In this document: positions 35,439-63,173 of the stretch, one piece after another
Position numbering within the stretch: the first letter of the stretch is position 1
Layout of the letters: every line of letters begins with the position of its first letter
NCBI GenBank assembly: GCA_964653715.1
Contig: CAZZGX010000027.1
Span: forward strand, 1,836 to 65,835
Source of the DNA: an uncultured Candidatus Saccharibacteria bacterium
GTDB lineage: Bacteria; Patescibacteriota; Minisyncoccia; Ryanbacterales; GWA2-47-10b
Length of the DNA: 64,000 nt
Direction of reading: 5' to 3'
Position numbers and translations under genes: made by a program
Notes under the pieces: generated by a model
What the model was told of the DNA's origin: nothing
Databases searched by the model: none
What the model saw: only the letters and a program-made list of their open reading frames with translations

Positions 35439-35439
35439 G

Positions 35440-47400: not shown

Positions 47401-47892
47401 TTAACGAGTTATTACAATAGAAGCAGCGTTGCCTACCTCACATGAACCAACAGTGACAGAGTTATTTGCGTTCTTGATTAAGTAATAACCAGTTTTCCCC
47501 GCATTCCATGTACCTGTTTCAGCAGGACTTATTGGTATAGATCCCAAGTGACCTCCTGTCTGCAGAGCTGTTAGATCAACACAATTAGTACCTGCGACGG
47601 GAACGCATGGAAGATTTGAGGCGGCAGTACAAGCAGCGCCAGTATTTGTCCCTATCATATAGTTTGTACCAGCAGTCAGAAGCGTGATTGAAGGAATATA
47701 ATTTCCTCCGTTATCAACCTGATTGACGCGAACCGCGCTCAAAATTGCAGATACATCCGCAAAGCGGCGTGAGTCACGCGCGTCTCGAAAGCGCTTTAAG
47801 GGATCAAGTGCGACAAATACGATCGCCGCGAGAATCGCGATAATGGCGATAACGATTAAAAGTTCAATTAATGTAAATCCTCGTTTTTTCAT
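47401..47892 (-). CDS. Type IV major pilin (prepilin-type N-terminal cleavage/methylation domain)
   Basis: MKKRGFTLIELLIVIAIIAILAAI is the class III signal G/FTLIE. It has its own strong terminator. Confidence 0.9.
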   Translation of the reverse strand: MKKRGFTLIELLIVIAIIAILAAIVFVALDPLKRFRDARDSRRFADVSAILSAVRVNQVDNGGNYIPSITLLTAGTNYMIGTNTGAACTAASNLPCVPVAGTNCVDLTALQTGGHLGSIPISPAETGTWNAGKTGYYLIKNANNSVTVGSCEVGNAASIVITR

Positions 47893-47975: not shown

Positions 47976-49682
47976 TTACTTGATTTTCTCAAGGTATTTC
48001 GCAGCCGCCCAGCCTTCTTTGCCTTCGCTGATCTTAATTTTGAACCAGCCGTTTGACTCGTCCACAAGCATATATTTCTCGCCTGGGTTGACCTTTTGAA
48101 TCAAAGTCCCAGAAACCGATGGTGTCTCGCGCACATTGAGCCAGCCCGTTTCAGTGCTTTTTACAAGAACGTAGGTCCCAGATTGGATCGACTCGTTGTT
48201 ACTAAGAGTAACTTTTCCAACGAGATTCATTACCTTCGGGTCATCTGTTTTCTCAAGAGTCGTGATTTCAATGCTTTCAAGTTGATATTGGATGTGTCGC
48301 GTATTAAGATTTTCTACCATAACCGTGAACAACTGCTTGGCATCGGCATCGGGATAGGCCACCCACACATACGCCTCTTTTGAAGAACTAATCGGCGCAG
48401 GCGCAAGTTTTTCCCCGCTTCGCAATTCTTTTTCCGCCTCAGAAAGAGAAAAAATAATCGCCTCGCTTTCCGAAACGGATTTTTGAGACGTAATTTCAAT
48501 ACTGCGGCCGTGTAAATTTTGATCGGTATAACTTGCGGTTTTAAACGCCAGTGGAATTTTTATATTCAGAATTTCTTTCTTTGAAAATTGCGCGGCTGGT
48601 TGCGACACGATGGTTGCTTGGGGGAGAGGAAAAGTCGGCATTTTTTTTGTGTTCCATCTCAATCCTACTAATAAAAGAAAAACGAGAACACCCATAGCCA
48701 TAACAATATTTTTTCTTGAAAAGTAATTATTCGTGTTTTTTCTCGCGTCGTTCCCAGAAAGGGCGAGGCGCGGCGAATTCATATCCCAAAGGGCCAACGC
48801 CGCTCCGACTGCTTTCATGCACCGCGTTCCACTCGAATAAATACTTACTCCGATCTCGGCAGGAATCGAAAGATTTGTTTCAAAAAAAGACGCTGACCCA
48901 CCGAGACGCGCCAACTCCCCGCCGAGTACAATTTTTTTAATATCATGCCCTGTGGTTTTTTTAAAATAGGAAACGCCGCGAGCAATTTCAGCGGCTATCG
49001 GTTCAAGCGCCTTGATCACGGTGAAAAAGTTTTTGTCGTTTTTACCGCTTAAATTTTCCTTCTCGAGATCAACCTCGCCAATGCCCGGCAGTGCGTATGA
49101 CGAATGAAAAACACCTCGATCAAAAAAAGAAACAAAAACTGCCGTTTTGCCAAGCTCAACGAGCGCCAATGCCAAATCTTCTTTTTGATTGGCAAGACCT
49201 CGGAAGAGTGCCGCGGGCTCTGGATCAAAAAACGCGATTTCAATCCTCAATTTTTGGAAAAATGCCTCCCATTCATTGAGCCACTCCCTGCTTGAAGCGA
49301 TAATGCTGAGACTTGAGCGCGAAAAGACAAGGTCTCTCCGGTCGAGCGGGATATTTTTTTCCGCTTCTTTTCGAAGCGTATCCGTCAAATCTTCACTCTC
49401 TTTTGAAACAAAAAAATGCGAATAGACAAGGTTTTCGGGAAGCGCAAACGTAGCTTTTCTTACCAAAATCGGCCTTGGTTCCGCTTCAAGAAGCGTTTTT
49501 TTGAGAGCGTCAAAAAGCTTTTGTTCGTTCTTGATTCTCCCCTCCTCAACCACGCCCGGCTCGAGCGTCTTTCTGCCAAGATTTTTTATTCTTGGCCTGT
49601 TAAATTGCGCAAGCTCCGCTATTTCTATTGAGTGGTCGTCGATGCTGATGCCAACCGAATGCGAAAAAAATATATTTTTCAT
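47976..49682 (-). CDS. pilM: Type IV pilus assembly protein PilM fused to PilN-like TM segment and C-terminal SH3b domain
   Basis: Actin-like PilM N-domain, mid TM (IVMAMGVLVFLLLVGL), and a C-terminal SH3b-like region (GWLNVRETPSVSGTLIQKVNPGEKYMLVDESNGWFKIK). Confidence 0.75.
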   Translation of the reverse strand: MKNIFFSHSVGISIDDHSIEIAELAQFNRPRIKNLGRKTLEPGVVEEGRIKNEQKLFDALKKTLLEAEPRPILVRKATFALPENLVYSHFFVSKESEDLTDTLRKEAEKNIPLDRRDLVFSRSSLSIIASSREWLNEWEAFFQKLRIEIAFFDPEPAALFRGLANQKEDLALALVELGKTAVFVSFFDRGVFHSSYALPGIGEVDLEKENLSGKNDKNFFTVIKALEPIAAEIARGVSYFKKTTGHDIKKIVLGGELARLGGSASFFETNLSIPAEIGVSIYSSGTRCMKAVGAALALWDMNSPRLALSGNDARKNTNNYFSRKNIVMAMGVLVFLLLVGLRWNTKKMPTFPLPQATIVSQPAAQFSKKEILNIKIPLAFKTASYTDQNLHGRSIEITSQKSVSESEAIIFSLSEAEKELRSGEKLAPAPISSSKEAYVWVAYPDADAKQLFTVMVENLNTRHIQYQLESIEITTLEKTDDPKVMNLVGKVTLSNNESIQSGTYVLVKSTETGWLNVRETPSVSGTLIQKVNPGEKYMLVDESNGWFKIKISEGKEGWAAAKYLEKIK

Positions 49683-49684
49683 TT

Positions 49685-50107
49685 TTAATTGCTTTGTTCA
49701 CTCCAAGATACAATGGATATGACATTATACAGAGCCCCCGACAAAATGACGGCCGCTTGGATTTTTTTGTTGTAGCTCCCGCTTGTTCCCGTAACAGTAA
49801 TGACACGCCCTATGCCAAATGCTGATACTACTTCTATTATACAAGACCCATCGGGAGCTGTGAAACTCATTGGGCCCAGAGTTATCCCATAGAGTGGATC
49901 GATACGGATATGACGATACGTCTCTTCCATACATCCATGCGCAACACCAAGTGCCTTTGCCCCGCCCGCAGCCGATAATCCCATATCGAGCTCTCCGAGC
50001 CCAATGAGTGCCGTGCTGTAAACTTCAAGAAATGTTATTGCCCCTATAAGAATAACGGTAAAAAGCGCCGCGATACCTTTTTGATTTTTATTTTTTAAAG
50101 ATTGCAT
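49685..50107 (-). CDS. PilX-N-like minor pilus protein (no GFxxxE cleavage motif)
   Basis: N-terminus MQSLKNKNQKGIAALFTVILIGAITFL resembles the PilX N-terminal helix. Start moved to ATG 50107 to remove a 125-nt overlap. Confidence 0.5.
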   Translation of the reverse strand: MQSLKNKNQKGIAALFTVILIGAITFLEVYSTALIGLGELDMGLSAAGGAKALGVAHGCMEETYRHIRIDPLYGITLGPMSFTAPDGSCIIEVVSAFGIGRVITVTGTSGSYNKKIQAAVILSGALYNVISIVSWSEQSN

Positions 50108-50108
50108 A

Positions 50109-50618
50109 TTATTGGCGCAGACTGACGGCAGTCTCGAGCGTTTGCGAATACTGATAAATATTGTTTGCGGATGGGTTTTTATACTCAAATGTGGCGACGA
50201 CACGGAGATTGTCTCGTTCTCCCAATTCTGCAAGATTTTTGTAGGAAAGCGCTGTCACGATAACTTCTTTTCCAAGAATTGGTACGGGACTCCCCGCCAA
50301 TTGCGTCATATAGAACATCCCTCCCGCAACGCTGAATGTAATATCTGGATCAGCCCCGGGCATATCGAGCAATAATGGAAAAATCACGCCGTCGAGAGCG
50401 TTCCCTTTCGTAGGACTTGTGATGAGGCGCGCACCTCGGACTTTTTGAGTCAAAATATCAAACGCTAGGCGCGCGTTTGACTCAACTTCTTCTATCGCGT
50501 GCGCTTTAGCGCGATTTGCGGAAATAGAAATCCCAAACATTACAAATCCCGTTACGATAAGGCCGATGACGGCCACGTAGATAAGAGTTTCTATAAATGT
50601 AAATCCTTTTTTCTTCAT
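50109..50618 (-). CDS. Prepilin-type pseudopilin (minor pilin)
   Basis: MKKKGFTFIETLIYVAVIGLIV from ATG 50618. Confidence 0.8.
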   Translation of the reverse strand: MKKKGFTFIETLIYVAVIGLIVTGFVMFGISISANRAKAHAIEEVESNARLAFDILTQKVRGARLITSPTKGNALDGVIFPLLLDMPGADPDITFSVAGGMFYMTQLAGSPVPILGKEVIVTALSYKNLAELGERDNLRVVATFEYKNPSANNIYQYSQTLETAVSLRQ

Positions 50619-50619
50619 C

Positions 50620-53600
50620 CTATTTATAATTAACTCTAACTTCCTTGAGTACCGGCGAGCTCGCGCCGTCTCCACTTAAAAATACTTTGTACTCGACCCA
50701 TCGATTGCCATTGAGCGCGGTCGGCACCAAAGAAGCATTTCTAGCGGTAAAATATGTTCCGGCCCCGCCGGCCCCGTACCACGGTGTCCAAACGCCCGGC
50801 AAACCTGATACATCGGGTGCCGTCCGCAATTGAAATTGAACTGAACACGCGGGAACACATACGGGGATTGATTCATCCCACTCAATAATCTGGACTGGCG
50901 AGGGATCGGACATATTAAAATTTGAAGATGTGAGGAAGCCGCTCCCCACATAGGCGCTTCGCCGCAAAATAACTCCCTGCGCGCCGACAATCCACCCCAC
51001 ACTTTGATTGACCATTTTGACCGCGTTGAGCACGGTGGATACAGGCGACGAGTATACCTGCCACGTTGAGCCGTCCCAATGAAGAATGGTCCCGCCAGCG
51101 CCGACAATCCATCCGTCAGTTGCGGATACCATGTACACGCTATTGAGTGTCGCCGATGTTGGGGATAGAACCGATTGCCACGCGCAGATTGGGGCACAAA
51201 TATAGCGATAAATTCTTCCATTCCCGCCGACAATCCATCCGTCAGTTGCGGATACCATGTACACGCTGTTCCACGCTTGCGTGGAAATCGTTTGAGATGA
51301 CCACGAAGAACCATTCCAATGGAGCACTACCCCGTTATTCCCTACGGCCCAACCGTCACTCGCAGAAATCATGTATATGCTATTGAGTCCCGAACTAGTC
51401 GGAGATGAAACCGCTTGCCACGCGCCACCCGTTTGCCACCCGCCTCCAGTAAAATGCCGGATATTGCCTCCCAAACCCACAACCCACGCATTATCAGGAG
51501 CAAGCGCAAAGAGCGATCGCCACGCGGCAGAACCCTGCTGCAAACTTACGGCGGTAGTACCGTCCCAATGAAAAATTTTTCCCCCGCTTGCCGCAATCCA
51601 GCCATCATTTGCGGAAACCATGGAAATACTATTGAGATCGTTGGTGCTGATATTTGTGGCAAGCGTCCATCCAAAACCATCAAAATGCAGAATGTCTCCG
51701 TTGTTCGTAACGGCCCAAATATTATCCTGCGTGACAATGGAAAGATCGTTGATCGATTGTGTTGTTACAGGATTATATAGAATTGTAATATCCTGAAACT
51801 GTGGTGACACGCTGCCAACGGTGCCACGAGTAAAAGTGACACGGTACTGAAAATATCGGCGAGCGGGCGAACTAATGCTTGAGTTTATATTGTTCGTTTG
51901 TTCAGCTGAAAACGATGACCAGCTTGCATCGGGCGCGGGCGTATTGCCGGTTCTTGTAGAAACTGTCATGGTAGTGCCCACTGGTACCGCTTGAGACCAA
52001 TACATGAGAGCCCAGGTTGTGAGAGGATTGCCGCCATCGAAAATTCTGGAAAAGAGTGTTCCCACGCTCACGTATGATATATCGTAATACGCGATACGCC
52101 CAGAACTTCCAAGAGTCCAGCCGTGCGTTGCATCTTGCATTGTGACTGCATTCCAGCTCATGCCCCCTAAATCAGTAACCTCGGACCACGCGCTTCCCGA
52201 ATAGCGATAGAGTTTTCCGGTTGATCCCGCAATCCAGCCGCTGCTCGGTGATAGCATAAAAACATCATTTAAATTGGTACTCCCCGCAAAACTGCTTACC
52301 GTTTGCCACAAAGTTCCATTATAATGCCGGGCAATGCCATTGTTACCTACAACCCAGCCATCGCTCGCGGAAATCATAAATACCGAATTCCACGCTTCAT
52401 TGCCGGTATCAATTGATTTACTGCCGGTCCAATTGAGCTCATCCCAATGAAGAATTTTACCCGCGAGCCCTACCGCCCACCCATCACTAGATGAAACCAT
52501 ATAGATACTTTTCAAATCTTTGGTTCCAGCGGGCACTGCGTATGCGCCTGACCATGCCGTTCCGTTCCAACGTTTGATTGAGCCATTAGCGCCTACAATC
52601 CAAACATTATCTGCGGCAAGAACAAATACATCATTCCATGTCACGCTATCGCCGGTGCTCAAGAGCGTCCAAGTTGAACCATTCCATCTGTAAGTTCTCC
52701 CACCCGATCCAACCGCCCAACCATCGGTAGTTGTCCGCATATCAATCCCGCGGAGATTTACTGTGGCGCCTAAATTTGCGCTGACTGCCCAATTTGTTCC
52801 ATTGTACCGAAGCACCTGACCGGCATCGGTTACCGCCCAGACATCGCTGGGTCCAATCGCGTCCACATCGGTAATATTTTGAGTAGTCGCAACCGCGCTC
52901 GCCGCGTGCTCTGCCCACTGTTGCGCCTGTGCAAGCGCTACGCTTGCTCCAGCTCCCGTGCCATTTACCGCGGTACCGGACAAAGATCCCGCGTTAAAAT
53001 CAGAATCAGTAGTGTCGAAAAAACTATTTGCGTATGCAGGAACCCAGACACCGTTTGGCAACGCGCGAAGCGTAATTTGTCCTGGGGTTGTAGAGTTGTC
53101 AATATTCCCGTCGTCGCTGTTGTATTGTGTTGCGTTCGACCAGTTTGTCTGCCCCGCGCCTCCCGACCAATCAGTCTGGGTCCATTCACGAGAATCCCAA
53201 TTTGTAAGATACTCATTACGGTCAACATAACTAGAATTTCCCCACGACACGCGCACGCGGACATATTTTGAATGAATATCTTTGTAATTACCGCCAGTAG
53301 GGGGACAAGAAGCGATATTCCCAGCAGGATCGCGACATACCTCATCAAATTGGATGGTCCGCGTATATTTGCCGTTGATCAACTGCGATAACCCGGAAGT
53401 GAGCACCCAGCGATTGCCAACTTCCGAGACAACGGCCGGGCTCGGCACAATCTCATTCCACGCACCATCGCGTACCGAACGAACCGCCTCCATCCCCTCC
53501 TCGGCAAAATGGAACGCTTCTGTTTCTTCGCCTCCTTTGAGAAGTGCTGAAAAATTGCCCGCAGCTAGTGAGGCGATCGAAACCGAGAGAAGCAGGAAAA

Positions 53601-53661
53601 TCGCCATAGCGATAAGAATCTCCATGAGCGATTGGCCTTTTTTATAATCAAGCCGCTTCAT
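50620..53661 (-). CDS. Giant (1013 aa) pseudopilin with about 14 Ycf48/BNR-like beta-propeller blade repeats
   Basis: N-terminus MKRLDYKKGQSLMEILIAMAIFLL (G-x4-E prepilin motif), followed by about 14 repeats of the form (S/T)xxDGW(A/I)VG..G.I..W.G..W. Confidence 0.8.
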   Translation of the reverse strand: MKRLDYKKGQSLMEILIAMAIFLLLSVSIASLAAGNFSALLKGGEETEAFHFAEEGMEAVRSVRDGAWNEIVPSPAVVSEVGNRWVLTSGLSQLINGKYTRTIQFDEVCRDPAGNIASCPPTGGNYKDIHSKYVRVRVSWGNSSYVDRNEYLTNWDSREWTQTDWSGGAGQTNWSNATQYNSDDGNIDNSTTPGQITLRALPNGVWVPAYANSFFDTTDSDFNAGSLSGTAVNGTGAGASVALAQAQQWAEHAASAVATTQNITDVDAIGPSDVWAVTDAGQVLRYNGTNWAVSANLGATVNLRGIDMRTTTDGWAVGSGGRTYRWNGSTWTLLSTGDSVTWNDVFVLAADNVWIVGANGSIKRWNGTAWSGAYAVPAGTKDLKSIYMVSSSDGWAVGLAGKILHWDELNWTGSKSIDTGNEAWNSVFMISASDGWVVGNNGIARHYNGTLWQTVSSFAGSTNLNDVFMLSPSSGWIAGSTGKLYRYSGSAWSEVTDLGGMSWNAVTMQDATHGWTLGSSGRIAYYDISYVSVGTLFSRIFDGGNPLTTWALMYWSQAVPVGTTMTVSTRTGNTPAPDASWSSFSAEQTNNINSSISSPARRYFQYRVTFTRGTVGSVSPQFQDITILYNPVTTQSINDLSIVTQDNIWAVTNNGDILHFDGFGWTLATNISTNDLNSISMVSANDGWIAASGGKIFHWDGTTAVSLQQGSAAWRSLFALAPDNAWVVGLGGNIRHFTGGGWQTGGAWQAVSSPTSSGLNSIYMISASDGWAVGNNGVVLHWNGSSWSSQTISTQAWNSVYMVSATDGWIVGGNGRIYRYICAPICAWQSVLSPTSATLNSVYMVSATDGWIVGAGGTILHWDGSTWQVYSSPVSTVLNAVKMVNQSVGWIVGAQGVILRRSAYVGSGFLTSSNFNMSDPSPVQIIEWDESIPVCVPACSVQFQLRTAPDVSGLPGVWTPWYGAGGAGTYFTARNASLVPTALNGNRWVEYKVFLSGDGASSPVLKEVRVNYK

Positions 53662-54141
53662 CTATTGAATTTGAACAACCCCAAGAACGTTGACGCTGAC
53701 GGCAAGCGTGCCCCCCGTAGAATGCGCGAGTGTCACAAGACCTGCCGCCTGCGGCACGCCGAGACCCTTTGAAAAATAAACATCGCCCAGAGAAAAATTT
53801 GAACTTTGGGTTAGGGCCGAAGGCAAAACGGTTATCTGATCAATACTTGGGTCACGATTGGCAAAAGCAGGACTCGCGCTTGGCGATCCCCACAACGTAA
53901 AACGATTTGTATCAAAATGGACGCCGTATGTCATTCCTCCCGCGCGCGCGGCCGAACGCTCGCGCGCCTGTCTAAGAGTTGCCGCCAACTGATCGGCATA
54001 TTCGTCGAGTTGGGCGCCCCGATAAACATTGCTATAAAGTGGGGTCGCTAAAACCGCGAGTAAAAGGGTGATCGCGAGAACAATAACAAACTCAAAAGCG
54101 GTAAACCCTTTTTTAGCGCTGGATATTGCCCGTAAGCTCAT
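53662..54141 (-). CDS. Prepilin-type pseudopilin (minor pilin)
   Basis: MSLRAISSAKKGFTAFEFVIVLAITLLLA from ATG 54141, overlapping the pilC 3' end by 29 nt. Confidence 0.7.
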   Translation of the reverse strand: MSLRAISSAKKGFTAFEFVIVLAITLLLAVLATPLYSNVYRGAQLDEYADQLAATLRQARERSAARAGGMTYGVHFDTNRFTLWGSPSASPAFANRDPSIDQITVLPSALTQSSNFSLGDVYFSKGLGVPQAAGLVTLAHSTGGTLAVSVNVLGVVQIQ

Positions 54142-55198
54142 AGATGGGCGTAATGATGGCGAGCGCGAATATGACAACTATAATACCTATAATAAGCAAA
54201 AGCATGGGTTCTATAATAGTAGAAAGTGATTTTGCGGTCGTATCGACTCCTTCCTCATAAAAATTAGCAAGATATAAAAGTGTCTCCTCAAAGCGCCCGG
54301 ACTCTTCCCCAACCTGCACCATGCGCGTAACTATTTTAGGAAAAAGTTTTTTGTGCGACTCGAGACTTTCGGCAAGTTTTCCTCCTTTACTGATGTGTAC
54401 CGACACGTCTTCAAGGGCGCGGCGATAATAAAAATTGCCGGTGCTTGAAGCGGTAATATCGAGCGCCTCATCGATATTGATTCCACTTTTAAGCAGCGTC
54501 CCCAGTGTTCTTGAAAAACGCGCGAGATTCGCGCCCATCACAAGGCGCTTGATAAGAGGCGTGTGCAAAAAAATCCAATGGGTCACGGGCTTTATAAAAT
54601 TTTGACGGATAAGCCATACAAAGAAAAAAATAAAAAATACGAGACCAAGAAGCAGCCAAACGCCATCATTTTGAATAAGGTGCGCGAACCAAATAAGAGC
54701 GCGCGTGCTCATTGGTAAGTCTATCTTAAGTCCCTCAAAAAGAGGTATGATCTTTGGAAGCACAACAAAGGACATAAAAATACCGAGGATAAATGTGGCA
54801 ACAAGAATGAACCCGGGATACACCAAGGCGCCTGTCACTTTTGCCGTAAGCTCTTTTTCCTTTTCAAGCTCTTGGGCAACGCTCTCAAGATTTTCGGCGA
54901 GCTGCCCCGAGGCCTCCCCTGCACGCACCGATTCCGTAAAAAGGCCCGAAAATACTCGAGGATAATCTGAAAATGACGAGGAAAGGGAACGCCCCGTCTC
55001 AACCGCTTTGAGGACTCCTCCGAGCGTCGGCTTCAGTCTGCCTTCAGCCGCGTCTGCCGCGATTGAAAGCGCCTCAATGATTGTAAGACCAGACCGCAAC
55101 ATCACTGCCAAGTGCTTGGCAAGCAATGCTCGTTGGGTAAGGCTTACCCCACCAAAAGAAATAGAACGATTTAATTTTTTTACGCTACTTGTTTTCAT
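54113..55198 (-). CDS. pilC: Type IV pilus platform protein PilC (GspF family)
   Basis: Two T2SSF repeats and three TM helices. 361 aa. Confidence 0.85.
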   Translation of the reverse strand: MKTSSVKKLNRSISFGGVSLTQRALLAKHLAVMLRSGLTIIEALSIAADAAEGRLKPTLGGVLKAVETGRSLSSSFSDYPRVFSGLFTESVRAGEASGQLAENLESVAQELEKEKELTAKVTGALVYPGFILVATFILGIFMSFVVLPKIIPLFEGLKIDLPMSTRALIWFAHLIQNDGVWLLLGLVFFIFFFVWLIRQNFIKPVTHWIFLHTPLIKRLVMGANLARFSRTLGTLLKSGINIDEALDITASSTGNFYYRRALEDVSVHISKGGKLAESLESHKKLFPKIVTRMVQVGEESGRFEETLLYLANFYEEGVDTTAKSLSTIIEPMLLLIIGIIVVIFALAIITPIYELTGNIQR

Positions 55199-55581
55199 TT
55201 TTTTCGCTTTGCCAAATGCGTCCGAACCAGCTCCGGCAATTTATTTATTGAAAAATCGGTTTTAACAAGATAGTCGGCGGCACCCAGTTCAAGCCCTGTT
55301 TTGATGTCCGACTCTTGCCCGAGATTAGTGAGAATAATAACCGGAATATGTTTTGTTTCTTTATTAAGCTTAATCTCACTTAAAATATCAAAACCGTTTT
55401 TTTGCGGCAAAATAATATCAAGGAGCACCAAATCCGGTTTCTCCTGCACTACCTTCCCAAGCCCTTCCTCACCTGAAATCGCCATACTGACTTCAAATCC
55501 TTCGCGCTTGAGCTTATCGCTATAGAGCTTTAGAAGAAACTTGTCGTCCTCGATAATAAGAATGTTTTTTTTGTCGTCCAT
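55195..55581 (-). CDS. Single-domain response regulator (CheY-like receiver)
   Basis: ILIIEDDKFLLKLY...LVLLDIILPQKNG has the phospho-acceptor Asp context. 128 aa with no output domain. Confidence 0.85.
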   Translation of the reverse strand: MDDKKNILIIEDDKFLLKLYSDKLKREGFEVSMAISGEEGLGKVVQEKPDLVLLDIILPQKNGFDILSEIKLNKETKHIPVIILTNLGQESDIKTGLELGAADYLVKTDFSINKLPELVRTHLAKRKK

Positions 55582-55584
55582 TGT

Positions 55585-56304
55585 TTAACGCAAGGGTAAT
55601 GTGAAATAAAAAGTGGTTCCTTTCTCTGGCACACTCTCAAACCATATAGTGCCGCCGCTTGCCATAATGATCGCCTTCGAAATGAAAAGCCCGAGCCCCG
55701 AGCCTTCGGCGGCGAGCGCTACCACGCGCGGACTCCGATAAAATTTACTGAATATTTTCTTGCGGTCTGTGGTCGTGATGCCAACACCGCTATCGGCACA
55801 GGCAAAAAGGACCTCTTTTGTATTTTTTGTAACGGCAACCTTAATATTTCCCTTTCCTTTATTATAGCGTATTGCGTTGTAAATAATATTGGTCACGACT
55901 TCTTGGATTTTAGTTGCATCTATCGAAATAAGAGCCACGGGGGAAGGCACATCCAGCGAAATAGTGGTGTTTTTGGCGCTGGCAAACGCGGTAAGATCTT
56001 TAATCACAGTTCGTACGATCTCAACAAAATCAGAAGGACTTTTTTCAAGCGTCATGCGGCTCTCGTCAATCCGAGAAGCATCAAGCAAATTTTTGACAAG
56101 CTGAATCATCTTATCCGTGCCTCCATAGGCTAGGCGCAAATATTCTTCCTGTTCGGGAGAAAGTTTTCCCAAATCGCCGGAAAGAAGCACCTCTATCGAA
56201 GACTTTATGCCCGCGAGCGGAGTTTTCAATTGATGCGCGATAACCGACGTAACTTCGGTAATTCTTTTTTCGCTTTTAAGTGAAAGTGTTTTTTTTGATC
56301 TCAT
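55585..56304 (-). CDS. Sensor-less histidine kinase (DHp + HATPase_c only)
   Basis: H-box IAHQLKTPLAGI and N/G1/G2 boxes (NAIRYN, DSGVGI, GSGLGL). No TM or sensor domain. 239 aa. Confidence 0.85.
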   Translation of the reverse strand: MRSKKTLSLKSEKRITEVTSVIAHQLKTPLAGIKSSIEVLLSGDLGKLSPEQEEYLRLAYGGTDKMIQLVKNLLDASRIDESRMTLEKSPSDFVEIVRTVIKDLTAFASAKNTTISLDVPSPVALISIDATKIQEVVTNIIYNAIRYNKGKGNIKVAVTKNTKEVLFACADSGVGITTTDRKKIFSKFYRSPRVVALAAEGSGLGLFISKAIIMASGGTIWFESVPEKGTTFYFTLPLR

Positions 56305-56306
56305 TG

Positions 56307-58094
56307 TTATTCTTTAGTGGCGCGGATAACTTCTTCAAGCGTGGTAATGCCTACAATAACTTTCTGAATCCCGTCCTCGAGCATCGTGGTCATGCCGCTA
56401 CTCTCTGCCACTTTCATAATTTCGATAGAGGCCGCCCGTTTGGTAATTAAATCTTTAATTTCATCGTTCATCAAAAGCACTTCAAAAATTCCAACCCGCC
56501 CGAGGTATCCCGTGCTAGAGCAAACAGGACATCCCCCGCCCTTGTAAAAACGAATTTTCGCAAACGACGATTTATTCTTTATCTTTAAAAGCTTTTTTAA
56601 GTGCGGGTCCTCTTCGATCATTGCCTTTTCCTCCGGAAGAAGTTTATACGAGACGCGGCACTTCTCACAAATGCGGCGCACGAGTCGCTGGGCGATGATA
56701 CAATTGACGGTTGAGGCCACAAGAAATGGCTCGACCTTCATATCCAAAAGGCGCGGCAGAGTGGTCGCCGCGTCATTTGCGTGGAGCGTTGAGAGGACGA
56801 GGTGGCCGGTCATGGCTGAGTTTACGGCGATATCAGCGGTTTCCTCATCGCGGATCTCGCCGACCATAATCATGTCCGGGTCCTGCCGGACGATCGCGCG
56901 AAGTCCTTTTGCGAACGTCAGATTGGTTCTTGAGTTTACCTGAATTTGGCTGACTCCTTCAATTTCATATTCAACAGGATCCTCAATGGTTGAGATATGA
57001 ACGTCGCGGGTGTTTAAAATTTTGAGCATGCCGTAGACCGTCGTCGTCTTCCCGGATCCCGTAGGGCCTGTTACAAGAATCATCCCGTGCGGATTGTCGA
57101 TCGAGCGGCGGACTTTTTTAAAATCAGCCTCACCCAACCCCAAATCCGTAAGGCCAAATTGCCGGCTCCGAGCCGAGAGGATACGCATGACGACATTTTC
57201 GCCTTCGGTCACCGGCACAATGGAAATACGAACGTCCACTTTTTCATCATCGGCCTCAAAAGCAAGCTTACCATCCTGTGCCGCGCGGTGCTCGTCAGTA
57301 CGCATTTTCGATAATATTTTTATGCGCGTCAAAATCAAATCCATGAGCGCTTTGGGCACGTCAAGAACATCGTGCATAACGCCGTCAACTCGAAAGCGAA
57401 CCATTACCTTGCCGGGGTGCGGCTCCACATGAATATCGGATGCCTTTGAATCATATCCGTAGTGGAGCAGCATATCGACAACCTCAACGATAGTCTCGTC
57501 GCGCTCCTCTTTTGAAAGAAGAGTGTCGTTGAGCTTGCCAAGAATTTTTTTAAATTCATCGTGAATATTGGCTTTGTAGCGCGCGAGTACATCATCAAAA
57601 CTCCGGCGTGTCATGTAAAACGGCATGACTTTAGCGCCGAGCCGTTTTTCAAGAAGATGCGTTGCCTCAAAATCATCGGGATCGCGCATGCCTACCTTGA
57701 CGCCCGCACCCCTGCGCGAGAAGGCAACCACACCGCGCGCGCGCGCAACTGCTTCGGGAATTTCGTGAAGTAGCGCCTCATCAATTTTTTCTTCCTTAAG
57801 ATCGACGAAGGAAACTCCCAGCTCCTCTGCTATGATCTTACCTAGCTGGTCGTCATTGATAAGGTCCTTATCAATCAAAAGCTCGTCGAGTGCTTTCCCC
57901 TGCTCACCTGCTTCTTTTTTGGCAAGCTCAAAATCCGCCTCCGAGACAAGACCGGGCTTTACCAGCAACTCCTTTATTTTTTCATCGGTAAGGTCCACAG
58001 CTAAATTTAATTGTATTATAACTGAAAGCGGTAGATGGAGACAGTGCTTTGTTTTAAAGTATATATTGGTGGTCTTTGGAGGGATCAATGACAA
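56307..58094 (-). CDS. pilB: Type IV pilus assembly ATPase PilB (GspE family)
   Basis: N-terminal GSPII_E_N domain, Walker A GPTGSGKTTT, and a tetra-Cys motif (CEKC...CPVC). 595 aa. The N-terminus overlaps the divergent XRE gene; the true start may be the downstream GTG at 57998. Confidence 0.9.
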   Translation of the reverse strand: MSLIPPKTTNIYFKTKHCLHLPLSVIIQLNLAVDLTDEKIKELLVKPGLVSEADFELAKKEAGEQGKALDELLIDKDLINDDQLGKIIAEELGVSFVDLKEEKIDEALLHEIPEAVARARGVVAFSRRGAGVKVGMRDPDDFEATHLLEKRLGAKVMPFYMTRRSFDDVLARYKANIHDEFKKILGKLNDTLLSKEERDETIVEVVDMLLHYGYDSKASDIHVEPHPGKVMVRFRVDGVMHDVLDVPKALMDLILTRIKILSKMRTDEHRAAQDGKLAFEADDEKVDVRISIVPVTEGENVVMRILSARSRQFGLTDLGLGEADFKKVRRSIDNPHGMILVTGPTGSGKTTTVYGMLKILNTRDVHISTIEDPVEYEIEGVSQIQVNSRTNLTFAKGLRAIVRQDPDMIMVGEIRDEETADIAVNSAMTGHLVLSTLHANDAATTLPRLLDMKVEPFLVASTVNCIIAQRLVRRICEKCRVSYKLLPEEKAMIEEDPHLKKLLKIKNKSSFAKIRFYKGGGCPVCSSTGYLGRVGIFEVLLMNDEIKDLITKRAASIEIMKVAESSGMTTMLEDGIQKVIVGITTLEEVIRATKE

Positions 58095-58342
58095 AGGACG
58101 GTATTAATCAGAAGTTCGTGGCACGACGGATTCGAGAAGCGATAGATATGCATGCCGAAGGCGATATCCAGCTATTTGCGCATTACGTCGGGCTCTCTGC
58201 TTCAGCAATGTACAACTATATCCATACCGAAAGAACCCCTTCAACCAGAGCGCTTTGGAAAATATCTAGATTCACGAACTTGCCAATGGAATGGTTTCTC
58301 ACAGAACCCAAACGGCAAATCACGAACCTTTCAGACAATTAA
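58076..58342 (+). CDS. XRE-family helix-turn-helix transcriptional regulator
   Basis: Cro/C1-type HTH (FAHYVGLSASAMYNYIHTERTPSTRALWKISRFTNLPMEWF). 88 aa. Confidence 0.65.
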   Translation: MEGSMTKDGINQKFVARRIREAIDMHAEGDIQLFAHYVGLSASAMYNYIHTERTPSTRALWKISRFTNLPMEWFLTEPKRQITNLSDN

Positions 58343-58387: not shown

Positions 58388-58417
58388 TTGACAAAAGAAC
58401 AGTTTTAGTGTAAGAAT
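58388..58417 (+). promoter_or_regulatory. Consensus-like sigma70 promoter TTGACA-17 nt-TAAGAAT
   Basis: Perfect -35 hexamer, 17-nt spacer and a good -10. About 20 nt downstream lie AAGGAGG and an ATG at 58448. Confidence 0.6.
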
Positions 58418-58447
58418 AAGTTAGACAAATTTGCCAAGGAGGTTTCA

Positions 58448-58909
58448 ATGCGGCGAATCAGGCGATTCTTTCAAAAAATAACTCTCATCGAACTCATCGC
58501 GATTTGTGCAGTGGGAGGTATTACAGGCAAAATGTACCTTCTCGTGCGAGAGCGACAAGATCTGCGAATGCAGATCGGTGTCGTACTGCTCGAGCATAAG
58601 CTCGTGTATCGTTACGAAGAGCGCGGGTTTGGCACTCTTGCGCGTCTTTGCAAAAGTACACCGCGCAAATGGCGCGAGTTTTACTTTACCTGCAAAGCAA
58701 CGAAAAGACCAAGTGCGCCAGCCTCGCTTGTAACCACGATATACCGCAATCGATTCGCGGCCAATCATAAATACGCCGCTTTCAAGCGGCGCTGGCAATC
58801 ATCTGAATGGATCCCCATTCGGCGCTCACCCGGACTTGTCTCGCGACAAGTCCGTTTTTTTATTTATCCGGAAATTCTTTTTAAAATTGTTCTTTCAATA
58901 AAAAAATGA
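58448..58909 (+). CDS. Hypothetical highly basic small protein, OR an untranslated about 440-nt RNA (ORF runs through its own terminator)
   Basis: The best promoter and SD in the window sit upstream. The 153-aa ORF (MRRIRRFFQKITLIELIAICAVGG...) continues about 50 nt past an intrinsic terminator at 58831-58862. Confidence 0.3.
   Translation: MRRIRRFFQKITLIELIAICAVGGITGKMYLLVRERQDLRMQIGVVLLEHKLVYRYEERGFGTLARLCKSTPRKWREFYFTCKATKRPSAPASLVTTIYRNRFAANHKYAAFKRRWQSSEWIPIRRSPGLVSRQVRFFIYPEILFKIVLSIKK
58831..58862 (+). terminator. Intrinsic terminator (CGGACTTGTC-TCGC-GACAAGTCCG + T8)
   Basis: Perfect 10-bp stem plus U-run. It lies inside the 58448 ORF. Confidence 0.75.
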
Positions 58910-58938
58910 GGGTGTCCGGCACCTAGCAGGACACCCTC
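58901..58938 (-). terminator. Intrinsic terminator for minus-strand gene 58978..59580 (GAGGGTGTCC-N11-GGACACCCTC, T7 on minus)
   Basis: 10-bp stem preceded by A7 on plus. Convergent with the plus-strand terminator 40 nt away. Confidence 0.7.
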
Positions 58939-58977
58939 TTAGTCGCAGACACCTGATCAACTTGCTTTAGCCATCGC

Positions 58978-59580
58978 TTACTCGTAAACCACGAGCTTGT
59001 TGTCTCGGTGGTCAAGCGCGATTCGCGGTGGAAGACTCCACTCCTCTGCAAGTTTCTCGACCAGCTGGTCTGACGGCTTGGCAAGTTTGCAACTTTCGTC
59101 GCTAAGCTGGACCCAATTGCCGAACTTGCGCGCGTAGTAGCCATCATCACGCTTTTCTACACGGAACGCGTAGAAACTCGCTTGGTCCTTCGCCTGTGCC
59201 TTATACGCGCCTTTCTGTCCATGCTTGTCTGCGGCGCGTTCGCGGCAAACCGGGCAAGCGCGGTGAAGCTTCAAGAAATCAGAGAAACTGTAATAGGCAT
59301 TCCCGTAGCCGTGGGAATACTCCTCCCTCCCTTCGACGAGCAGGAGTTCTGCTCTACCCGTGGGAACAATTTCGGAGCAATAGGTGCACCAAGTCATTCC
59401 GCGAGCATGGAGTTCCTGCTGGAGAAGCTCGACGCGTTTCGCGCCGTATTCGCTAACTACCTGCCGGAGTGTCTGTTGCTTGGCGGAAAGTTTGAGTGAA
59501 ATCTGGTCGATGTTCTGTGCTGTACGCTCGGCCCGCTTACGCATGGCCAAAAGCTCTGTCGCCATCGCTTCTTGTGCCAT
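58978..59580 (-). CDS. Hypothetical coiled-coil protein with CxxC...CxxC zinc ribbon
   Basis: 200 aa. N-terminal heptad region, then CTYCSE-x27-CPVCRE. SD AAAGGAGAG 7 nt upstream. Local GC is above the window background. Confidence 0.55.
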   Translation of the reverse strand: MAQEAMATELLAMRKRAERTAQNIDQISLKLSAKQQTLRQVVSEYGAKRVELLQQELHARGMTWCTYCSEIVPTGRAELLLVEGREEYSHGYGNAYYSFSDFLKLHRACPVCRERAADKHGQKGAYKAQAKDQASFYAFRVEKRDDGYYARKFGNWVQLSDESCKLAKPSDQLVEKLAEEWSLPPRIALDHRDNKLVVYE

Positions 59581-59654
59581 AAAAAGCTCTCCTTTTTATG
59601 TTTGATTGTTGGAGTTCCATAAACAAGCTACCAAAAACAGCAATAAAAATCAAA

Positions 59655-59688
59655 CGAAAACAGAAACCATTTCAAATTTCTGTTTTCG
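59655..59688 (-). terminator. Terminator hairpin (CGAAAACAGAAA-N10-TTTCTGTTTTCG), T-rich on minus side
   Basis: Perfect 12-bp stem 30 nt downstream of the 59717 stop. Confidence 0.55.
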
Positions 59689-59716
59689 AAAAATCTTTAT
59701 GAAAAAAATTCTTTTG

Positions 59717-60001
59717 CTATTTGATTTTCCTCTCAAGACGAGCAACGCGGGTTTCGAGAAATTTAAACTCATCACGAGTTATTTGATTGTGGCGGATAAG
59801 CGCAAGTTCCGATTTCATAATATCAATATCGCCTTCGACTTTCATGAGCTTCTCGTCAATTTTATCTAATCTTCTCGTATGTTGTTTTGTCTCATCGCGG
59901 ACAAAATCCAAACTTTCTCCAAATACTCTAAAATCAGAGTGGATATTCTCTAAAACAATAGTATAAGCGTCTTTTTCTCTTATCTGCTTTCTCTTGGCCA
60001 T
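59717..60001 (-). CDS. Hypothetical coiled-coil protein (94 aa)
   Basis: Heptad-rich (…LDKIDEKLMKVEGDIDIMKSELALIRHNQITRDEFKFLETRVARLERKIK), AT-rich, with its own terminator. Confidence 0.45.
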   Translation of the reverse strand: MAKRKQIREKDAYTIVLENIHSDFRVFGESLDFVRDETKQHTRRLDKIDEKLMKVEGDIDIMKSELALIRHNQITRDEFKFLETRVARLERKIK

Positions 60002-60063
60002 AAATTTATCTTATCCCCAGAATCTACAAAAGTCAAAATAAGAATCTACAACTCCGTCTCAAA

Positions 60064-60150
60064 GCGGAGAGGGTGAGATTCGAACTCACGAGAGGATTGC
60101 TCCTCTGGCGGTTTTCAAGACCGCTGCCTTCAACCACTCAGCCACCTCTC
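60064..60150 (-). tRNA. tRNA-Ser (anticodon UGA), class II with long variable arm, CCA not encoded
   Basis: Hand fold: GGAGAGG-TG-GCT-GAGTGGTTGAA-GGC-A-GCGGT-CTTGAAA-ACCGC-CAGAGGAGCAATCCTCTC-GTGAG-TTCGAAT-CTCAC-CCTCTCC-G. Confidence 0.85.
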
Positions 60151-60195
60151 CGCTCTACTACGGAATCATTTCAAATTTTTAAGACCGCCGCCTTG

Positions 60196-60405
60196 TCGCG
60201 CTTATCACGCGGTTAAACATGACACGAGTCATGTTTAACGGGCTTCCCGCCTCGCCTCGATGGTGAGTCGAGGCGGGCGCCCGTCAAAAGCAACCCCATT
60301 GCTTTTGACCCACCCAGCCACCCCACCAGTGCAAATAGAATATCAAAATTGGGGCGAATTTCAACTTGAAAATAAATTCGGGGACGTTCCTTTTGGAACG
60401 TCCCC
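60196..60405. repeat. Cluster of four unrelated perfect/near-perfect GC-rich palindromes (stems 11-12 bp) plus minor AT palindromes
   Basis: 60212-60239 GTTAAACATGAC/GTCATGTTTAAC. About 60249-60279 CGCCTCGA/TCGAGGCG. 60283-60309 GTCAAAAGCAA/TTGCTTTTGAC. 60378-60405 CGGGGACGTTCC/GGAACGTCCCCG; the last also acts as terminator for the 60427 gene. Confidence 0.8.
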
Positions 60406-60426
60406 GACTCTTTGTTCGGCCAGCAA

Positions 60427-60735
60427 CTAGACCGGACGGATCTCGTGCACTTTGCGCTGCAACACGACGACCTTGCCATTGAGCGGCGTGGCCACCTGGA
60501 TGCGTTTGCCCACACGGCGGCGCACTTTGCCTGTGAACTCTCGCCTCCCATGCGTAAGCCTTACCTGGTCGCCCGGCGTAATCTTCACAGTGACGCCTTC
60601 GACGATGGTCCCATCTGGAAGGATCAGATCCCGTGGCTCCAGATGCTCGAGGCTCACCGGGGGTACAAACTCTTTGACCCCAGGCCGCAGGTATAGTAGA
60701 GCAGCAACTCCGATGAAAATCAGCAAAATGCTCAT
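60427..60735 (-). CDS. Hypothetical small membrane-anchored protein encoded in a 60+% GC segment
   Basis: 102 aa. SD GGAAGGAGG 6 nt upstream. N-terminal TM (MSILLIFIGVAALLYL) then a beta-rich domain (ILPDGTIVEGVTVKITPGDQVRL...). Hand-counted GC about 63% over 120 nt versus about 33-45% elsewhere. Confidence 0.55.
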   Translation of the reverse strand: MSILLIFIGVAALLYLRPGVKEFVPPVSLEHLEPRDLILPDGTIVEGVTVKITPGDQVRLTHGRREFTGKVRRRVGKRIQVATPLNGKVVVLQRKVHEIRPV

Positions 60736-60874
60736 TTCTGCCTCCTTCCTTCATTGTAAAACAGTTTCATGAACCCAAAAACATTATATCATAATTATAT
60801 TGATTGTCAATATTCGTATAAATCTATTGTTATGCGCGATACTTCGTGCTAGGGATAAGCAGTAATTTATACCA

Positions 60875-62092
60875 ATGAATACCACCAAGGTAGTACAAGA
60901 ACTTGCCCAAGGACCAACACTTTCCATTATCGCGCTTATTGACGCCCTCATAGAAGAAGCGCACGGCCTCCGCGCATCGGACATTCATATTGACCCCAAT
61001 GAAAAAGAAGTTAAAGTGCGCGTGCGCATCGACGGTGTACTGCAAGACACCTATTCCATTCCTAAAGAAATCCAATCTGAAGTTATAACGAGAATTAAAG
61101 TCCTCTCTGGACTCCGCACGGACGAGCACCAAGCGCCGCAGGACGGGCGTTTTAGAATCGTACTTGCAGAGCAAAGTCCAATTGATATTCGCGTATCCAT
61201 CGCGCCTTCTTATTACGGAGAAAATGCGGTTTTGCGTCTTCTTTCCGAACGATCAGAAAAATTCGCGCTTGAGATGCTTGGCTTCAGCGAAGAAAACCAA
61301 GAAAAAATCGCGCGCGCCATCAGAAACCCATATGGAATGATACTGGCAACGGGACCAACGGGATCAGGCAAAACCACGACGCTCTACACCATTTTAAAAC
61401 AGCTCAATACAAAAGAGGTTTCCATTATAACGATCGAAGATCCGATAGAATACGCGCTCGACGGAATCAACCAGATGCAGGTCAACGCGCGGAGCGGTCT
61501 CACGTTTGCAAACGGCCTTCGCTCTATTTTGCGTCAAGACCCTGACATCATCATGGTTGGCGAAATCCGCGATTCCGAAACCGCCGGGCTTGCGGTAAAC
61601 ACGGCGCTCACCGGTCACCTCGTTCTATCCACACTTCACACAAACGACGCGGCAACCACACTCCCCCGCATGCTTGATCTGGGTCTCGAGCCGTATCTCA
61701 TCACTGCCACGGTAAATCTAGTTATTGGCCAGCGACTTGTCAGAAAAATATGTAGAGAGTGCAAAAAAGAGCACGAACTTACGCCTGCGGAACAAAAAAG
61801 TCTCGCAACAACAAAAAATATCCCGGCCTCGTTTAGTCAAATGCGCTCGGTGTGGCGAGGAGCTGGCTGTGAAGCATGCAACGGCAGTGGCTATAGAGGA
61901 CGCCTCGGCATTTATGAGATCATCGAGGTCAACGACGAGCTCAGAAACGCCATGCTCGAGCGATGCTCGTCTGAAAATATAAAAAAAGTTGCGATCCAAC
62001 ATGGCATGAGAAGCATGGTCGAGGACGGTTTTAAAAAAGTATTCAGAGGTCTCACCACCTTCGAAGAAGTTCTCCGCGTCATCCATGAATAA
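60875..62092 (+). CDS. GspE/PilB-family secretion ATPase, short form (second copy)
   Basis: Walker A GPTGSGKTTT, Asp/His boxes, and a tetra-Cys motif (CRECKKEH...CEACNGSG) that marks GspE/PilB rather than PilT. 405 aa. Confidence 0.85.
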   Translation: MNTTKVVQELAQGPTLSIIALIDALIEEAHGLRASDIHIDPNEKEVKVRVRIDGVLQDTYSIPKEIQSEVITRIKVLSGLRTDEHQAPQDGRFRIVLAEQSPIDIRVSIAPSYYGENAVLRLLSERSEKFALEMLGFSEENQEKIARAIRNPYGMILATGPTGSGKTTTLYTILKQLNTKEVSIITIEDPIEYALDGINQMQVNARSGLTFANGLRSILRQDPDIIMVGEIRDSETAGLAVNTALTGHLVLSTLHTNDAATTLPRMLDLGLEPYLITATVNLVIGQRLVRKICRECKKEHELTPAEQKSLATTKNIPASFSQMRSVWRGAGCEACNGSGYRGRLGIYEIIEVNDELRNAMLERCSSENIKKVAIQHGMRSMVEDGFKKVFRGLTTFEEVLRVIHE

Positions 62093-63173
62093 GCCAAAAC
62101 TCTCCGCAATGTCTCTTTCTCTCTTCCGCACCCGTCTGTCGCTTCGGGATCAGGCGCTTTTTGCCAAACGCCTTTCGCTCCTCTCACGTGCAGGCGTAAC
62201 GCTGCTTGAATCGATCAACATCATGAACCGCCAGAGTAAGGGCGCTAGAAAAAAAATGTATGAGGAGATTGAGAATGATTTAGCAAACGGACAATATTTA
62301 TCAAAAAGTCTCGCGCGACACCACCATAGCTTTGGCAACTTTGCCATAAATATTATTCGAGTCGGCGAGACAACTGGCACGCTTTCAGATAATTTGCTCT
62401 ACCTCTCGGAAGAAATCGACAAAAAAAGAGAATTGCGAGGAAAAGTCATCGGCGCCCTTATCTACCCGATCATTATCATGGTATCAGCGCTCGCAATTGC
62501 CGGATTTTTAACGATTTACCTTTTTCCAAAACTTATGCCGGTGTTTCAAAGCTTAAACGTAAAGTTACCAATAACGACGCGAGCGCTCATCTGGATAAGC
62601 ACATTTCTCATCGCCTACGGGCCTTGGATAATCGCCGGCCTCGTGGTGGGATTGATCGCGCTTTTCATTGCGTTGCGGGATGAACGTGTTCGGTTCATTT
62701 TTGATCATTTTCTTTTAAAAATTCCTGTCATGGGCGATGTACTTCAGCACTATCATATCAGCAACACCTGCCGCACCATGGGGCTCCTATTAAAAAGCAA
62801 CGTGCGCGTCTTGGAATCTGTTACGGTGGCAGCAGAAACTTCAAGCAATTTGCCCTATAGATACGCGCTCGCGCACCTTAAGACCGCAATCACCAAAGGG
62901 TCAAATATCGCGAAACAACTCGAGAAAAAACCGGGTCTTTTCCCCATCATGCTCACCGAGATGATCGCAATCGGAGAGAAAACCGGTAATCTGTCCGAGA
63001 CGTTTCTCTATTTATCTGGAATCTACGAACAGGAACTTGATGAAAAAACTAAACGACTTTCCTCAACTATTGAACCCGCCATGATGCTGGGAATGGGACT
63101 GCTTGTCGGCTTTATCGCAGTCTCCATCATCACGCCTATTTATGAGGTTACGCAACACTTGCAACCAAGGTAG
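62085..63173 (+). CDS. GspF/PilC-family platform protein (second copy)
   Basis: Two T2SSF repeats and three TMs, translationally coupled to the upstream ATPase (8-nt overlap). Confidence 0.85.
   Translation: MNKPKLSAMSLSLFRTRLSLRDQALFAKRLSLLSRAGVTLLESINIMNRQSKGARKKMYEEIENDLANGQYLSKSLARHHHSFGNFAINIIRVGETTGTLSDNLLYLSEEIDKKRELRGKVIGALIYPIIIMVSALAIAGFLTIYLFPKLMPVFQSLNVKLPITTRALIWISTFLIAYGPWIIAGLVVGLIALFIALRDERVRFIFDHFLLKIPVMGDVLQHYHISNTCRTMGLLLKSNVRVLESVTVAAETSSNLPYRYALAHLKTAITKGSNIAKQLEKKPGLFPIMLTEMIAIGEKTGNLSETFLYLSGIYEQELDEKTKRLSSTIEPAMMLGMGLLVGFIAVSIITPIYEVTQHLQPR

Follow-up and report, generated by a model that had tools for sequence, protein, structure and literature searches.

A candidate two-component phospho-switch encoded with pilB and pilC in type IV pilus operons of Patescibacteria

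Type IV pili are the best-documented means of movement and host attachment in the episymbiotic bacteria of the candidate phyla radiation (CPR), or Patescibacteria (PMC9894109, PMC12206443), and the control of pili in such reduced genomes is essentially unknown. A concrete candidate for such control is a pair of genes, encoding a histidine kinase and a receiver-only response regulator, that is lodged between the pilB and pilC genes in a 64,000-nucleotide (nt) stretch of DNA from an uncultured Candidatus Saccharibacteria bacterium (assembly GCA_964653715.1, contig CAZZGX010000027.1, positions 1,836 to 65,835; hereinafter, the window). In the interpretation that we favor with moderate confidence, the two proteins constitute a pilus-dedicated two-component phospho-switch that many Patescibacteria encode in the operon for the type IV pilus and that acts post-translationally on the pilus motor, probably on the PilB ATPase.

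Several described systems bear on this interpretation. PilG and PilH are single-domain receivers that steer type IV pilus activity and polarity post-translationally (PMC11656802, PMC10519157); both receive phosphate from ChpA, a CheA-type kinase that acts downstream of the receptor PilJ. The regulator in the window is likewise a single-domain receiver tied to the pilus, but its partner is a minimal HisKA kinase, the cluster contains no che-type genes, the two genes are located inside the pilB-pilC operon, and the receiver is closer to the OmpR/PhoB/PleD type than to CheY. The preliminary description of this DNA had compared the pair with PilG/PilH-type modules. As an analogy, in which a receiver tunes the motor, the comparison is reasonable given the precedents of EmvR, DrdR and the PatA-type regulators; membership of the pair in the PilG/PilH group is ruled out by the HisKA partner kinase, where that group has ChpA with an MCP and CheW, and by the non-CheY sequence affinity of the regulator.

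Binding of an output-less receiver to PilB, the mechanism that by analogy may apply to the regulator described here, has precedents in Xanthomonas. EmvR of X. oryzae pv. oryzicola is a receiver-only protein that binds PilB and represses its ATPase (PMC11973254), and DrdR of X. campestris binds both PilB and PilT and enhances the activity of both (PMC13507683). Unlike the pair in the window, the EmvR and DrdR genes are orphans located outside the pil operon; the kinase that serves EmvR, ColS, is a membrane sensor with a second, DNA-binding partner, and DrdR contains tandem receivers. Homology of these two proteins with the regulator is established for the receiver fold only. The PatA-type (PATAN-REC) regulators PixG, PixE, LsiR and TaxP of Synechocystis act with CheA-like kinases, and regulators of this type bind PilB1 and PilC; their output, however, is a separate PATAN domain, which the regulator in the window lacks.

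PilS and PilR resemble the pair in being a kinase and a regulator that are genetically tied to pil genes. PilS, a kinase with multiple membrane passes, senses PilA, and PilR is a sigma-54 activator of the NtrC type that acts on the transcription of pilA; the pair in the window lacks membrane segments as well as AAA+ and DNA-binding domains, and the PilS/PilR assignment is thus ruled out on domain content. The closest structural model for the pair is HK853-RR468 of Thermotoga maritima, where RR468 is also a stand-alone receiver. Full-length HK853 has a sensor and a membrane region, the solved chains being the cytoplasmic portion, and the residue that follows its phospho-acceptor histidine is Glu, unlike Gln25 in the kinase in the window. 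To our knowledge, HK853-RR468 has no association with pili. Finally, cyclic di-GMP (c-di-GMP) regulates PilB/MshE at the MshEN N-terminal domain of the extension ATPase. There, the ligand is a nucleotide, whereas the PilB proteins linked to the module analyzed here keep the MshEN fold without the binding-motif residues.

The kinase, the regulator and their arrangement

The kinase gene (55585-56304, minus strand) encodes a protein of 239 amino acids (aa) that consists of a dimerization and histidine phosphotransfer (DHp) domain and a catalytic and ATP-binding (CA) domain: the Pfam search detected HisKA at residues 16-81 (E = 8.8e-16), HATPase_c at residues 129-238 (E = 7.6e-26) and no other domains. 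The protein contains no hydrophobic segment, with a maximum 19-aa Kyte-Doolittle mean of 1.52 against a cut-off of 1.6. The AlphaFold2 model, built with 31 homologs (predicted local distance difference test score, pLDDT, of 89.8), consists of helices at residues 3-42 and 50-80 followed by an alpha/beta catalytic domain, a predicted architecture that matches exactly the cytoplasmic core of class I kinases; the H-box is preceded by about 20 basic residues of poor conservation. The best Foldseek matches to the model are the cytoplasmic portions of HK853 (including HK853-RR468 complexes), YycG and WalK (E of about 1e-19). By sequence, the closest solved structure is again HK853 (E = 2.7e-32; 25-30% identity), and YycG/WalK and VicK are matched as well.

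The catalytic signatures of the kinase are intact. The phospho-acceptor His24 (codon 56233-56235) aligns with His260 of HK853 and is invariant in 31 of the 31 aligned homologs, and the residue at position H+4, the phosphatase position, is Thr28, with Thr, Ser or Asn there in most family members. Among the residues of the N, G1, F and G2 boxes, N139, N143, D171, G173, F185, G201, G203 and G205 are invariant, and G175 is conserved in at least 90% of the sequences (alignment A1); H24, T28, N139, N143, D171, G173, G175, G201, G203 and G205 were also confirmed by position. The search for kinase homologs returned 1790 sequences at E<=1e-10. The best 120 of these are nearly all 204-253 aa long, with the histidine at position 7-35, and those that are named come mostly from metagenome-assembled genomes (MAGs) of Patescibacteria.

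The regulator gene (55195-55581, minus strand) encodes a 128-aa protein in which a receiver domain (Response_reg, residues 7-118, E = 3.5e-24) is the only domain, with no output domain attached. The phospho-acceptor is Asp55 (codon 55417-55419). E11, D12, D13, D55, T85, Y104 and K107 were confirmed by position; in alignment A2, D12, D13, D55, Y104 and K107 are invariant, and T85 is present in at least 90% of the sequences. The protein has 'KTDFS' where K-P is usual. Hardly any variation is seen in the alpha1 helix, which docks the kinase, or in the alpha4-beta5-alpha5 face, where N86, Q89, D92, Y104, K107, T108 and F110 are invariant. The best-matching solved receivers are the CovR/VicR-like REC, REC1 of PleD, RpaA, RR468 (1e-19), PhoP and YycF, with E values from 8e-21 to 2e-19, compared to about 3e-14 for the Thermotoga CheY chains.

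Neither protein attains the curated cutoff of any NCBIfam family: the best match of the kinase is WalK (184 bits vs a cutoff of 725), and the top families for the regulator are PleD, YycF and PhoB (about 88-89 bits vs cutoffs of 296-474). Regulator homologs number 2075 at E<=1e-8, the best 120 of which are 122-158 aa long and 66-92% identical. A profile search with the regulator alignment against 1.84 billion representative sequences yielded 4172 matches at E<=1e-30, a count that is no guide to the size of the family because multi-receiver proteins with high summed scores dominate the top of the list. The exact proteins form singleton clusters, and the closest named relatives come from Ryanbacteria and other Patescibacteria MAGs.

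The pair is tightly embedded between pilB (56307-57998, minus strand; T2SSE, 1e-124, and MshEN, 2.7e-13, in Pfam) and pilC, the platform protein gene (54113-55198, minus strand; T2SSF, 8.3e-56, in two repeats). As read directly from the sequence, the pilB TAA is separated from the kinase ATG by 2 nt and the kinase TAA from the regulator ATG by 3 nt; the regulator TGA overlaps the pilC ATG by 4 nt (ATGA). The hairpin scan found nothing within pilB-kinase-regulator-pilC as strong as the terminator-like hairpin that closes the operon (see below). The four genes are co-transcribed, and their translation is probably coupled. The preliminary description, which had presented a cytoplasmic kinase without a sensor (DHp and CA only) and a bare receiver in one minus-strand operon with pilB and pilC, is accurate to the nucleotide; the catalytic His and Asp, the absence of either of which it had named as damaging to its reading, are both in place (H24 and D55), whereas the acidic residue that commonly follows the phospho-histidine is missing, as discussed below.

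Recurrence and conservation of the module

The gene-neighborhood survey that the preliminary description had proposed shows that the arrangement recurs in many contigs of Patescibacteria. The order pilB-kinase-regulator-pilC, followed by minor pilins, pilM and a pilin gene, surrounds kinase homologs with identities from 60% down to about 41%, so that the series of genes located 3' of pilC in the window, from the pseudopilin to the pilin, is found again after pilC in the related loci. Among these are a Ryanbacteria MAG and a MAG labelled Saccharibacteria (L002 and L003). A second order, kinase-regulator-pilB-pilC, is present in Moranbacteria and in many metagenome contigs.

To quantify the linkage, metagenome contigs were scanned with the regulator as the anchor, blind to the presence of pil genes. 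In the sample with regulators of at least 54% identity, for which a flank of at least 2.5 kilobases (kb) on each side was required, the kinase gene is adjacent in 12 of 12 cases and pilB lies within 4.5 kb in 11 of 12; in the sample with 42-53% identity, pilB is near in 8 of 12. The baseline comes from a scan of the genome collection with the kinase alignment, which retrieved mostly unrelated kinases that share the HQLKTPL H-box, along with at least about 7 in-family loci among the matches listed. Of the unrelated kinases among those matches, 2 of 73 have pilB nearby, and these two we take to be PilS/PilR-like proteobacterial loci. In the proteobacterial loci L067 and L081, a gene for a long kinase with two transmembrane segments and a receiver match are found upstream of pilB-pilC, presumably a PilS/PilR-like configuration. 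The recurrence in independent contigs indicates that the linkage of the pair to pilB and pilC is more than chance, and its commonness among relatives points to a lineage-wide module rather than a local oddity.

No che-type Pfam families were detected in the annotated syntenic loci, and these loci contain no conserved histidine phosphotransfer (Hpt) protein, second receiver or DNA-binding regulator. The composition of the module varies in some loci. One contig (L128) encodes a 53%-identical receiver-only protein between pilB and a gene for a pilT-like (pilT-sized) ATPase, ahead of pilC, with no kinase gene beside it; there and in L159 and other loci, the regulator accompanies pilB without an adjacent kinase.

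In some of the kinase-regulator-pilB-pilC loci (L006-L008, L157, L162, L125 and L152), the kinase is not minimal. It is either a protein of 312-409 aa with two or three membrane helices predicted at the N-terminus or one of 598 aa in which the N-terminus is long and soluble, and the sensor-less form may thus derive from, or alternate with, a membrane-anchored one.

The module is widespread and apparently uncharacterised, and no description of it was found in the literature searched, although an earlier mention elsewhere is possible. The pil loci described for TM7x, a cultivated and genetically tractable model, are pilB1-pilT-pilC1 and pilB2-pilC2, with pilT in the same slot between pilB and pilC and no kinase or regulator mentioned; the Saccharibacteria pilus papers that were searched mention neither. 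A full-text search that targeted histidine kinases, response regulators and pili of the CPR returned no paper, and related searches returned nothing relevant, in a collection with few subscription-journal papers; the pair is not among the PilB cofactors covered by a 2024 review. The preliminary description had set against its own reading the case that the arrangement is both ubiquitous and already characterised in close relatives; common it is, in two gene orders, yet the searched literature contains no characterization.

To compare the levels of conservation, we used 26 non-redundant loci that hold all four genes. The mean pairwise identity is 0.58 for the ATPase core of PilB, 0.55 for the regulator, 0.44 for the kinase, and 0.40 each for PilC and the PilB N-domain. 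The regulator is under unusually strong purifying selection, and an identity this high for a receiver suggests that more than one partner surface constrains it.

The covariation of evolutionary rates was assessed with partial Mantel tests controlled for the PilB core, a type of test that is prone to false positives among related sequences. The coefficients are 0.70 for regulator vs kinase (p of about 0.0005), 0.44 for kinase vs PilB N-domain (p of about 0.001), 0.29 for regulator vs PilB N-domain (p of about 0.02) and 0.07, not significant, for regulator vs PilC N-terminus. These values give a hint that PilB, rather than PilC, may be the partner of the module.

The PilB N-domain itself has an unusual signature. 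In the window, it adopts the MshEN fold with the R/G/G/Q residues of the MshE motif substituted, and in an alignment with Vibrio cholerae MshE, the c-di-GMP-binding motif is matched in 0 of the 26 module-linked PilB N-domains, the R/G/G/Q residues of both motifs being gone. Input of c-di-GMP via the MshEN domain is ruled out by the degeneration of the motif in all 26. With the fold kept and the motif lost, a protein ligand at the PilB N-domain is plausible, as far as the sequences allow one to judge, and phosphorylation may stand in for c-di-GMP or Chp signalling.

A proposed phospho-switch and competing explanations

The mechanism that we have in mind would operate as follows. A dimer of the kinase would set the level of Asp55 phosphorylation in the regulator by phosphotransfer from His24, by phosphatase activity (Thr28 is present), or by both. 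Phosphorylation would alter the alpha4-beta5-alpha5 face of the regulator, which would then contact the pilus machine at one of its cytoplasmic parts, the most probable being PilB, perhaps at its MshEN-fold N-domain, and the binding would turn pilus extension up or down post-translationally. Neither protein contains a DNA-binding domain. Since the kinase has no sensor of any kind, what sets its activity is probably either contact with the motor (PilB, PilC or PilM) or the state of the cytoplasm (ATP/ADP or pH). In a stronger version of the same idea, which we regard as decidedly unlikely, the module would be a self-contained feedback switch: the sensor-less kinase, with no acidic residue beside its His, would be active as a kinase only once bound to the PilB N-domain or the platform, and the phosphorylated regulator would report motor engagement and time or reverse extension via PilB. 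Such a switch would take the place of control by c-di-GMP, by Chp and possibly by PilT in these episymbionts.

Several observations weigh against the phospho-switch. It is solely gene neighborhood and weak rate covariation, the latter from a test with the proneness noted above, that point to the target, which might be PilB, PilC, PilM or a component encoded outside the operon. The window is 64 kb of the genome, and kinases, Hpt proteins or regulators may be encoded elsewhere. The kinase lacks the acidic residue at position H+1 that is expected of class I HisKA enzymes: the H-box is HQLKTP, with Gln25, rather than Glu or Asp, after the phospho-histidine. The substitution is a family trait. Among the best 120 kinase homologs, 114 have Gln at H+1, 5 have Asn and 1 has Lys, with no Glu or Asp, and in the pil-linked loci with a readable H-box the H+1 residue is Q, N, H, K or T. 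In CrdS (E372A/D/G/Q), HK853 (E261A), HK4262 and HK1190, autophosphorylation depends on the acidic residue and phosphatase activity does not (Willett and Kirby, PMC3510030), and earlier data on NtrB E140A/Q show the same loss of autokinase activity (PMC3510030). The direction of phosphate flow in the module is therefore uncertain.

This feature of the family supports another explanation, in which the kinase serves mainly as an ATP/ADP-dependent phosphatase or as a scaffold, the regulator is phosphorylated by acetyl phosphate or another kinase, and the module reports the metabolic state of the cell to the pilus. The downstream action of the regulator on the motor could then still be the same as in the phospho-switch. 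All 120 of the closest homologs have Gln, Asn or Lys at H+1, none of the readable pil-linked loci has Glu or Asp, and replacements of the acidic residue by Q or A in CrdS, HK853 and NtrB are kinase-negative and phosphatase-positive (PMC3510030); Thr, Ser or Asn, of which Thr and Asn are the established phosphatase residues at H+4 (PMC3510030), is retained at that position in most members, and the loci in which the regulator accompanies pilB with no kinase beside it (L128, L159 and others) are also compatible with this scheme. However, the N, G1, F and G2 ATP-binding motifs are invariant across the family, and the kinase and the regulator co-evolve tightly. Furthermore, the genome-collection scan that supplied the neighborhood baseline also yielded 62 ordinary kinases from other phyla, with long N-terminal regions and mostly two predicted transmembrane segments, that have the identical HQLKTPL H-box and presumably act as kinases, and a 2026 preprint indicates that the H+1 rule might not be general and may fail for some HisKA-like domain types. 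We consider the phosphatase or scaffold explanation unlikely.

Alternatively, the regulator might not act on the pilus machine at all but rather be an intermediate in a Spo0F-like phosphorelay or partner switch that leads to transcriptional control of pilus or other genes. Spo0F is an example of a stand-alone receiver that functions in this capacity, it is among the PDB matches of the regulator (E of about 1e-14 to 2e-15), and a small gene with an HTH_3 (helix-turn-helix) domain match lies divergently upstream of pilB in the window. We find this improbable: the downstream components that a relay would need, be it an Hpt protein, a second receiver or a DNA-binding regulator, are not conserved in the syntenic loci; the 64-kb window encodes no further kinase or receiver; the HTH_3 gene has no counterpart in the other loci; and the very high conservation of the regulator and its fixed place next to pilB and pilC better fit a structural partner. 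More improbable still is that the pair serves a process unrelated to the pilus and shares the operon merely by co-expression or genome compaction. CPR genomes are compact, their operons are often mixed, and the function of the pair is read from sequence, but the linkage outlasts the change of gene order (pilB-kinase-regulator-pilC vs kinase-regulator-pilB-pilC) and holds down to about 35% kinase identity. Without a functional tie to pilB and pilC, persistence through both reordering and divergence would be difficult to account for.

If the phospho-switch exists, the kinase would be a natural histidine kinase that combines the lack of an input domain with a non-acidic H+1 residue, and so would bear on the question of kinase vs phosphatase output in HisKA enzymes. 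The module would need only three or four small soluble proteins, which makes it amenable to study in vitro. Should it prove ordinary, with a plain kinase and a plain PilB-binding receiver, the list of PilB cofactors would be extended to a large and poorly studied branch of bacteria.

The rest of the operon and other features of the window

The pair belongs to a single long minus-strand pil operon that spans about 47.35-58.0 kb of the window; pilT is not in this operon. The maximal pilB open reading frame (ORF) begins at TTG 58094, but the homology to the N-terminus of PilB in a related locus, L082 (MTDERLKELL...), makes GTG 57998 most likely the true start, which would give a 563-aa protein beginning with MDLTDEKIKELL. 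The match of this protein to the TIGR02538 PilB family scores 513 bits, under the curated cutoff of 675.65. A perfect TATAAT, read directly, is located at 58015-58020, 16 nt 5' of the GTG; the consensus scan did not list it. No obvious Shine-Dalgarno sequence precedes the GTG (57996-58020), and the operon mRNA may be nearly leaderless. The Rfam scan of the window detected two tRNAs only, with no riboswitch and no leader.

The 77-nt region 5' of pilB (57999-58075) is shared with the divergent HTH_3 gene (XRE-type; 58076-58342, plus strand), the Pfam match of which, at 21.9 bits, is under the 23-bit cutoff. This gene is ruled out as a conserved transcriptional partner, given that no homolog of it is present in about 170 related loci.

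Downstream of pilC, the operon continues on the minus strand with genes for a GspH-like pseudopilin (53662-54177), a pilin-like protein of 1013 aa (50620-53661), two more pilin-like ORFs (50109-50675 and 49685-50233), a 568-aa PilM-like protein with a C-terminal SH3 domain (47976-49682) and a pilin, the last gene (47401-47892). The Pfam matches in this part of the operon are N_methyl, GspH, PSII_BNR, PilM_2 and SH3_3. The operon is closed by an intrinsic-terminator-like hairpin 3' of the pilin gene (47391-47353 as read on the minus strand), with an 18-bp stem that includes 9 G-C pairs. In the 1013-aa protein, an N-terminal prepilin methylation motif is followed by Ycf48/BNR-type repeats that resemble a beta-propeller, and this giant pilin-like protein could be a tip adhesin. 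Its counterpart in the same position is a 624-aa protein in L082, with a faint PSII_BNR match, and a 1421-aa ORF in L089. PilM in the related loci is fused to LytR_C or carries other extensions, not SH3.

A second pilB/pilC pair is located at 60875-63173 on the plus strand. Its PilB-type ATPase (405 aa) shares 52% identity with the core of the first PilB and has no N-terminal MshEN-type domain at all; the gene overlaps the second pilC, which encodes 362 aa. No kinase or regulator gene accompanies this pair, so in this window the two-component module accompanies only the full-length PilB.

Elsewhere in the window, two neighboring large ORFs (437 and 381 aa; 34125-36585, minus strand) between ribosomal-protein genes and alaS belong to no confident family, with only sub-threshold GlxA and Baseplate_J matches. 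The stretch between the two pil loci (58400-60800) contains tRNA-Ser(TGA) (60064-60151, minus strand) and several ORFs without a Pfam match, among them those for a 200-aa protein with CxxC pairs (58978-59580) and a 94-aa product (59717-60001). The GC content varies across this stretch, from 0.44 to 0.52, and the stretch may be an insertion beside the tRNA.

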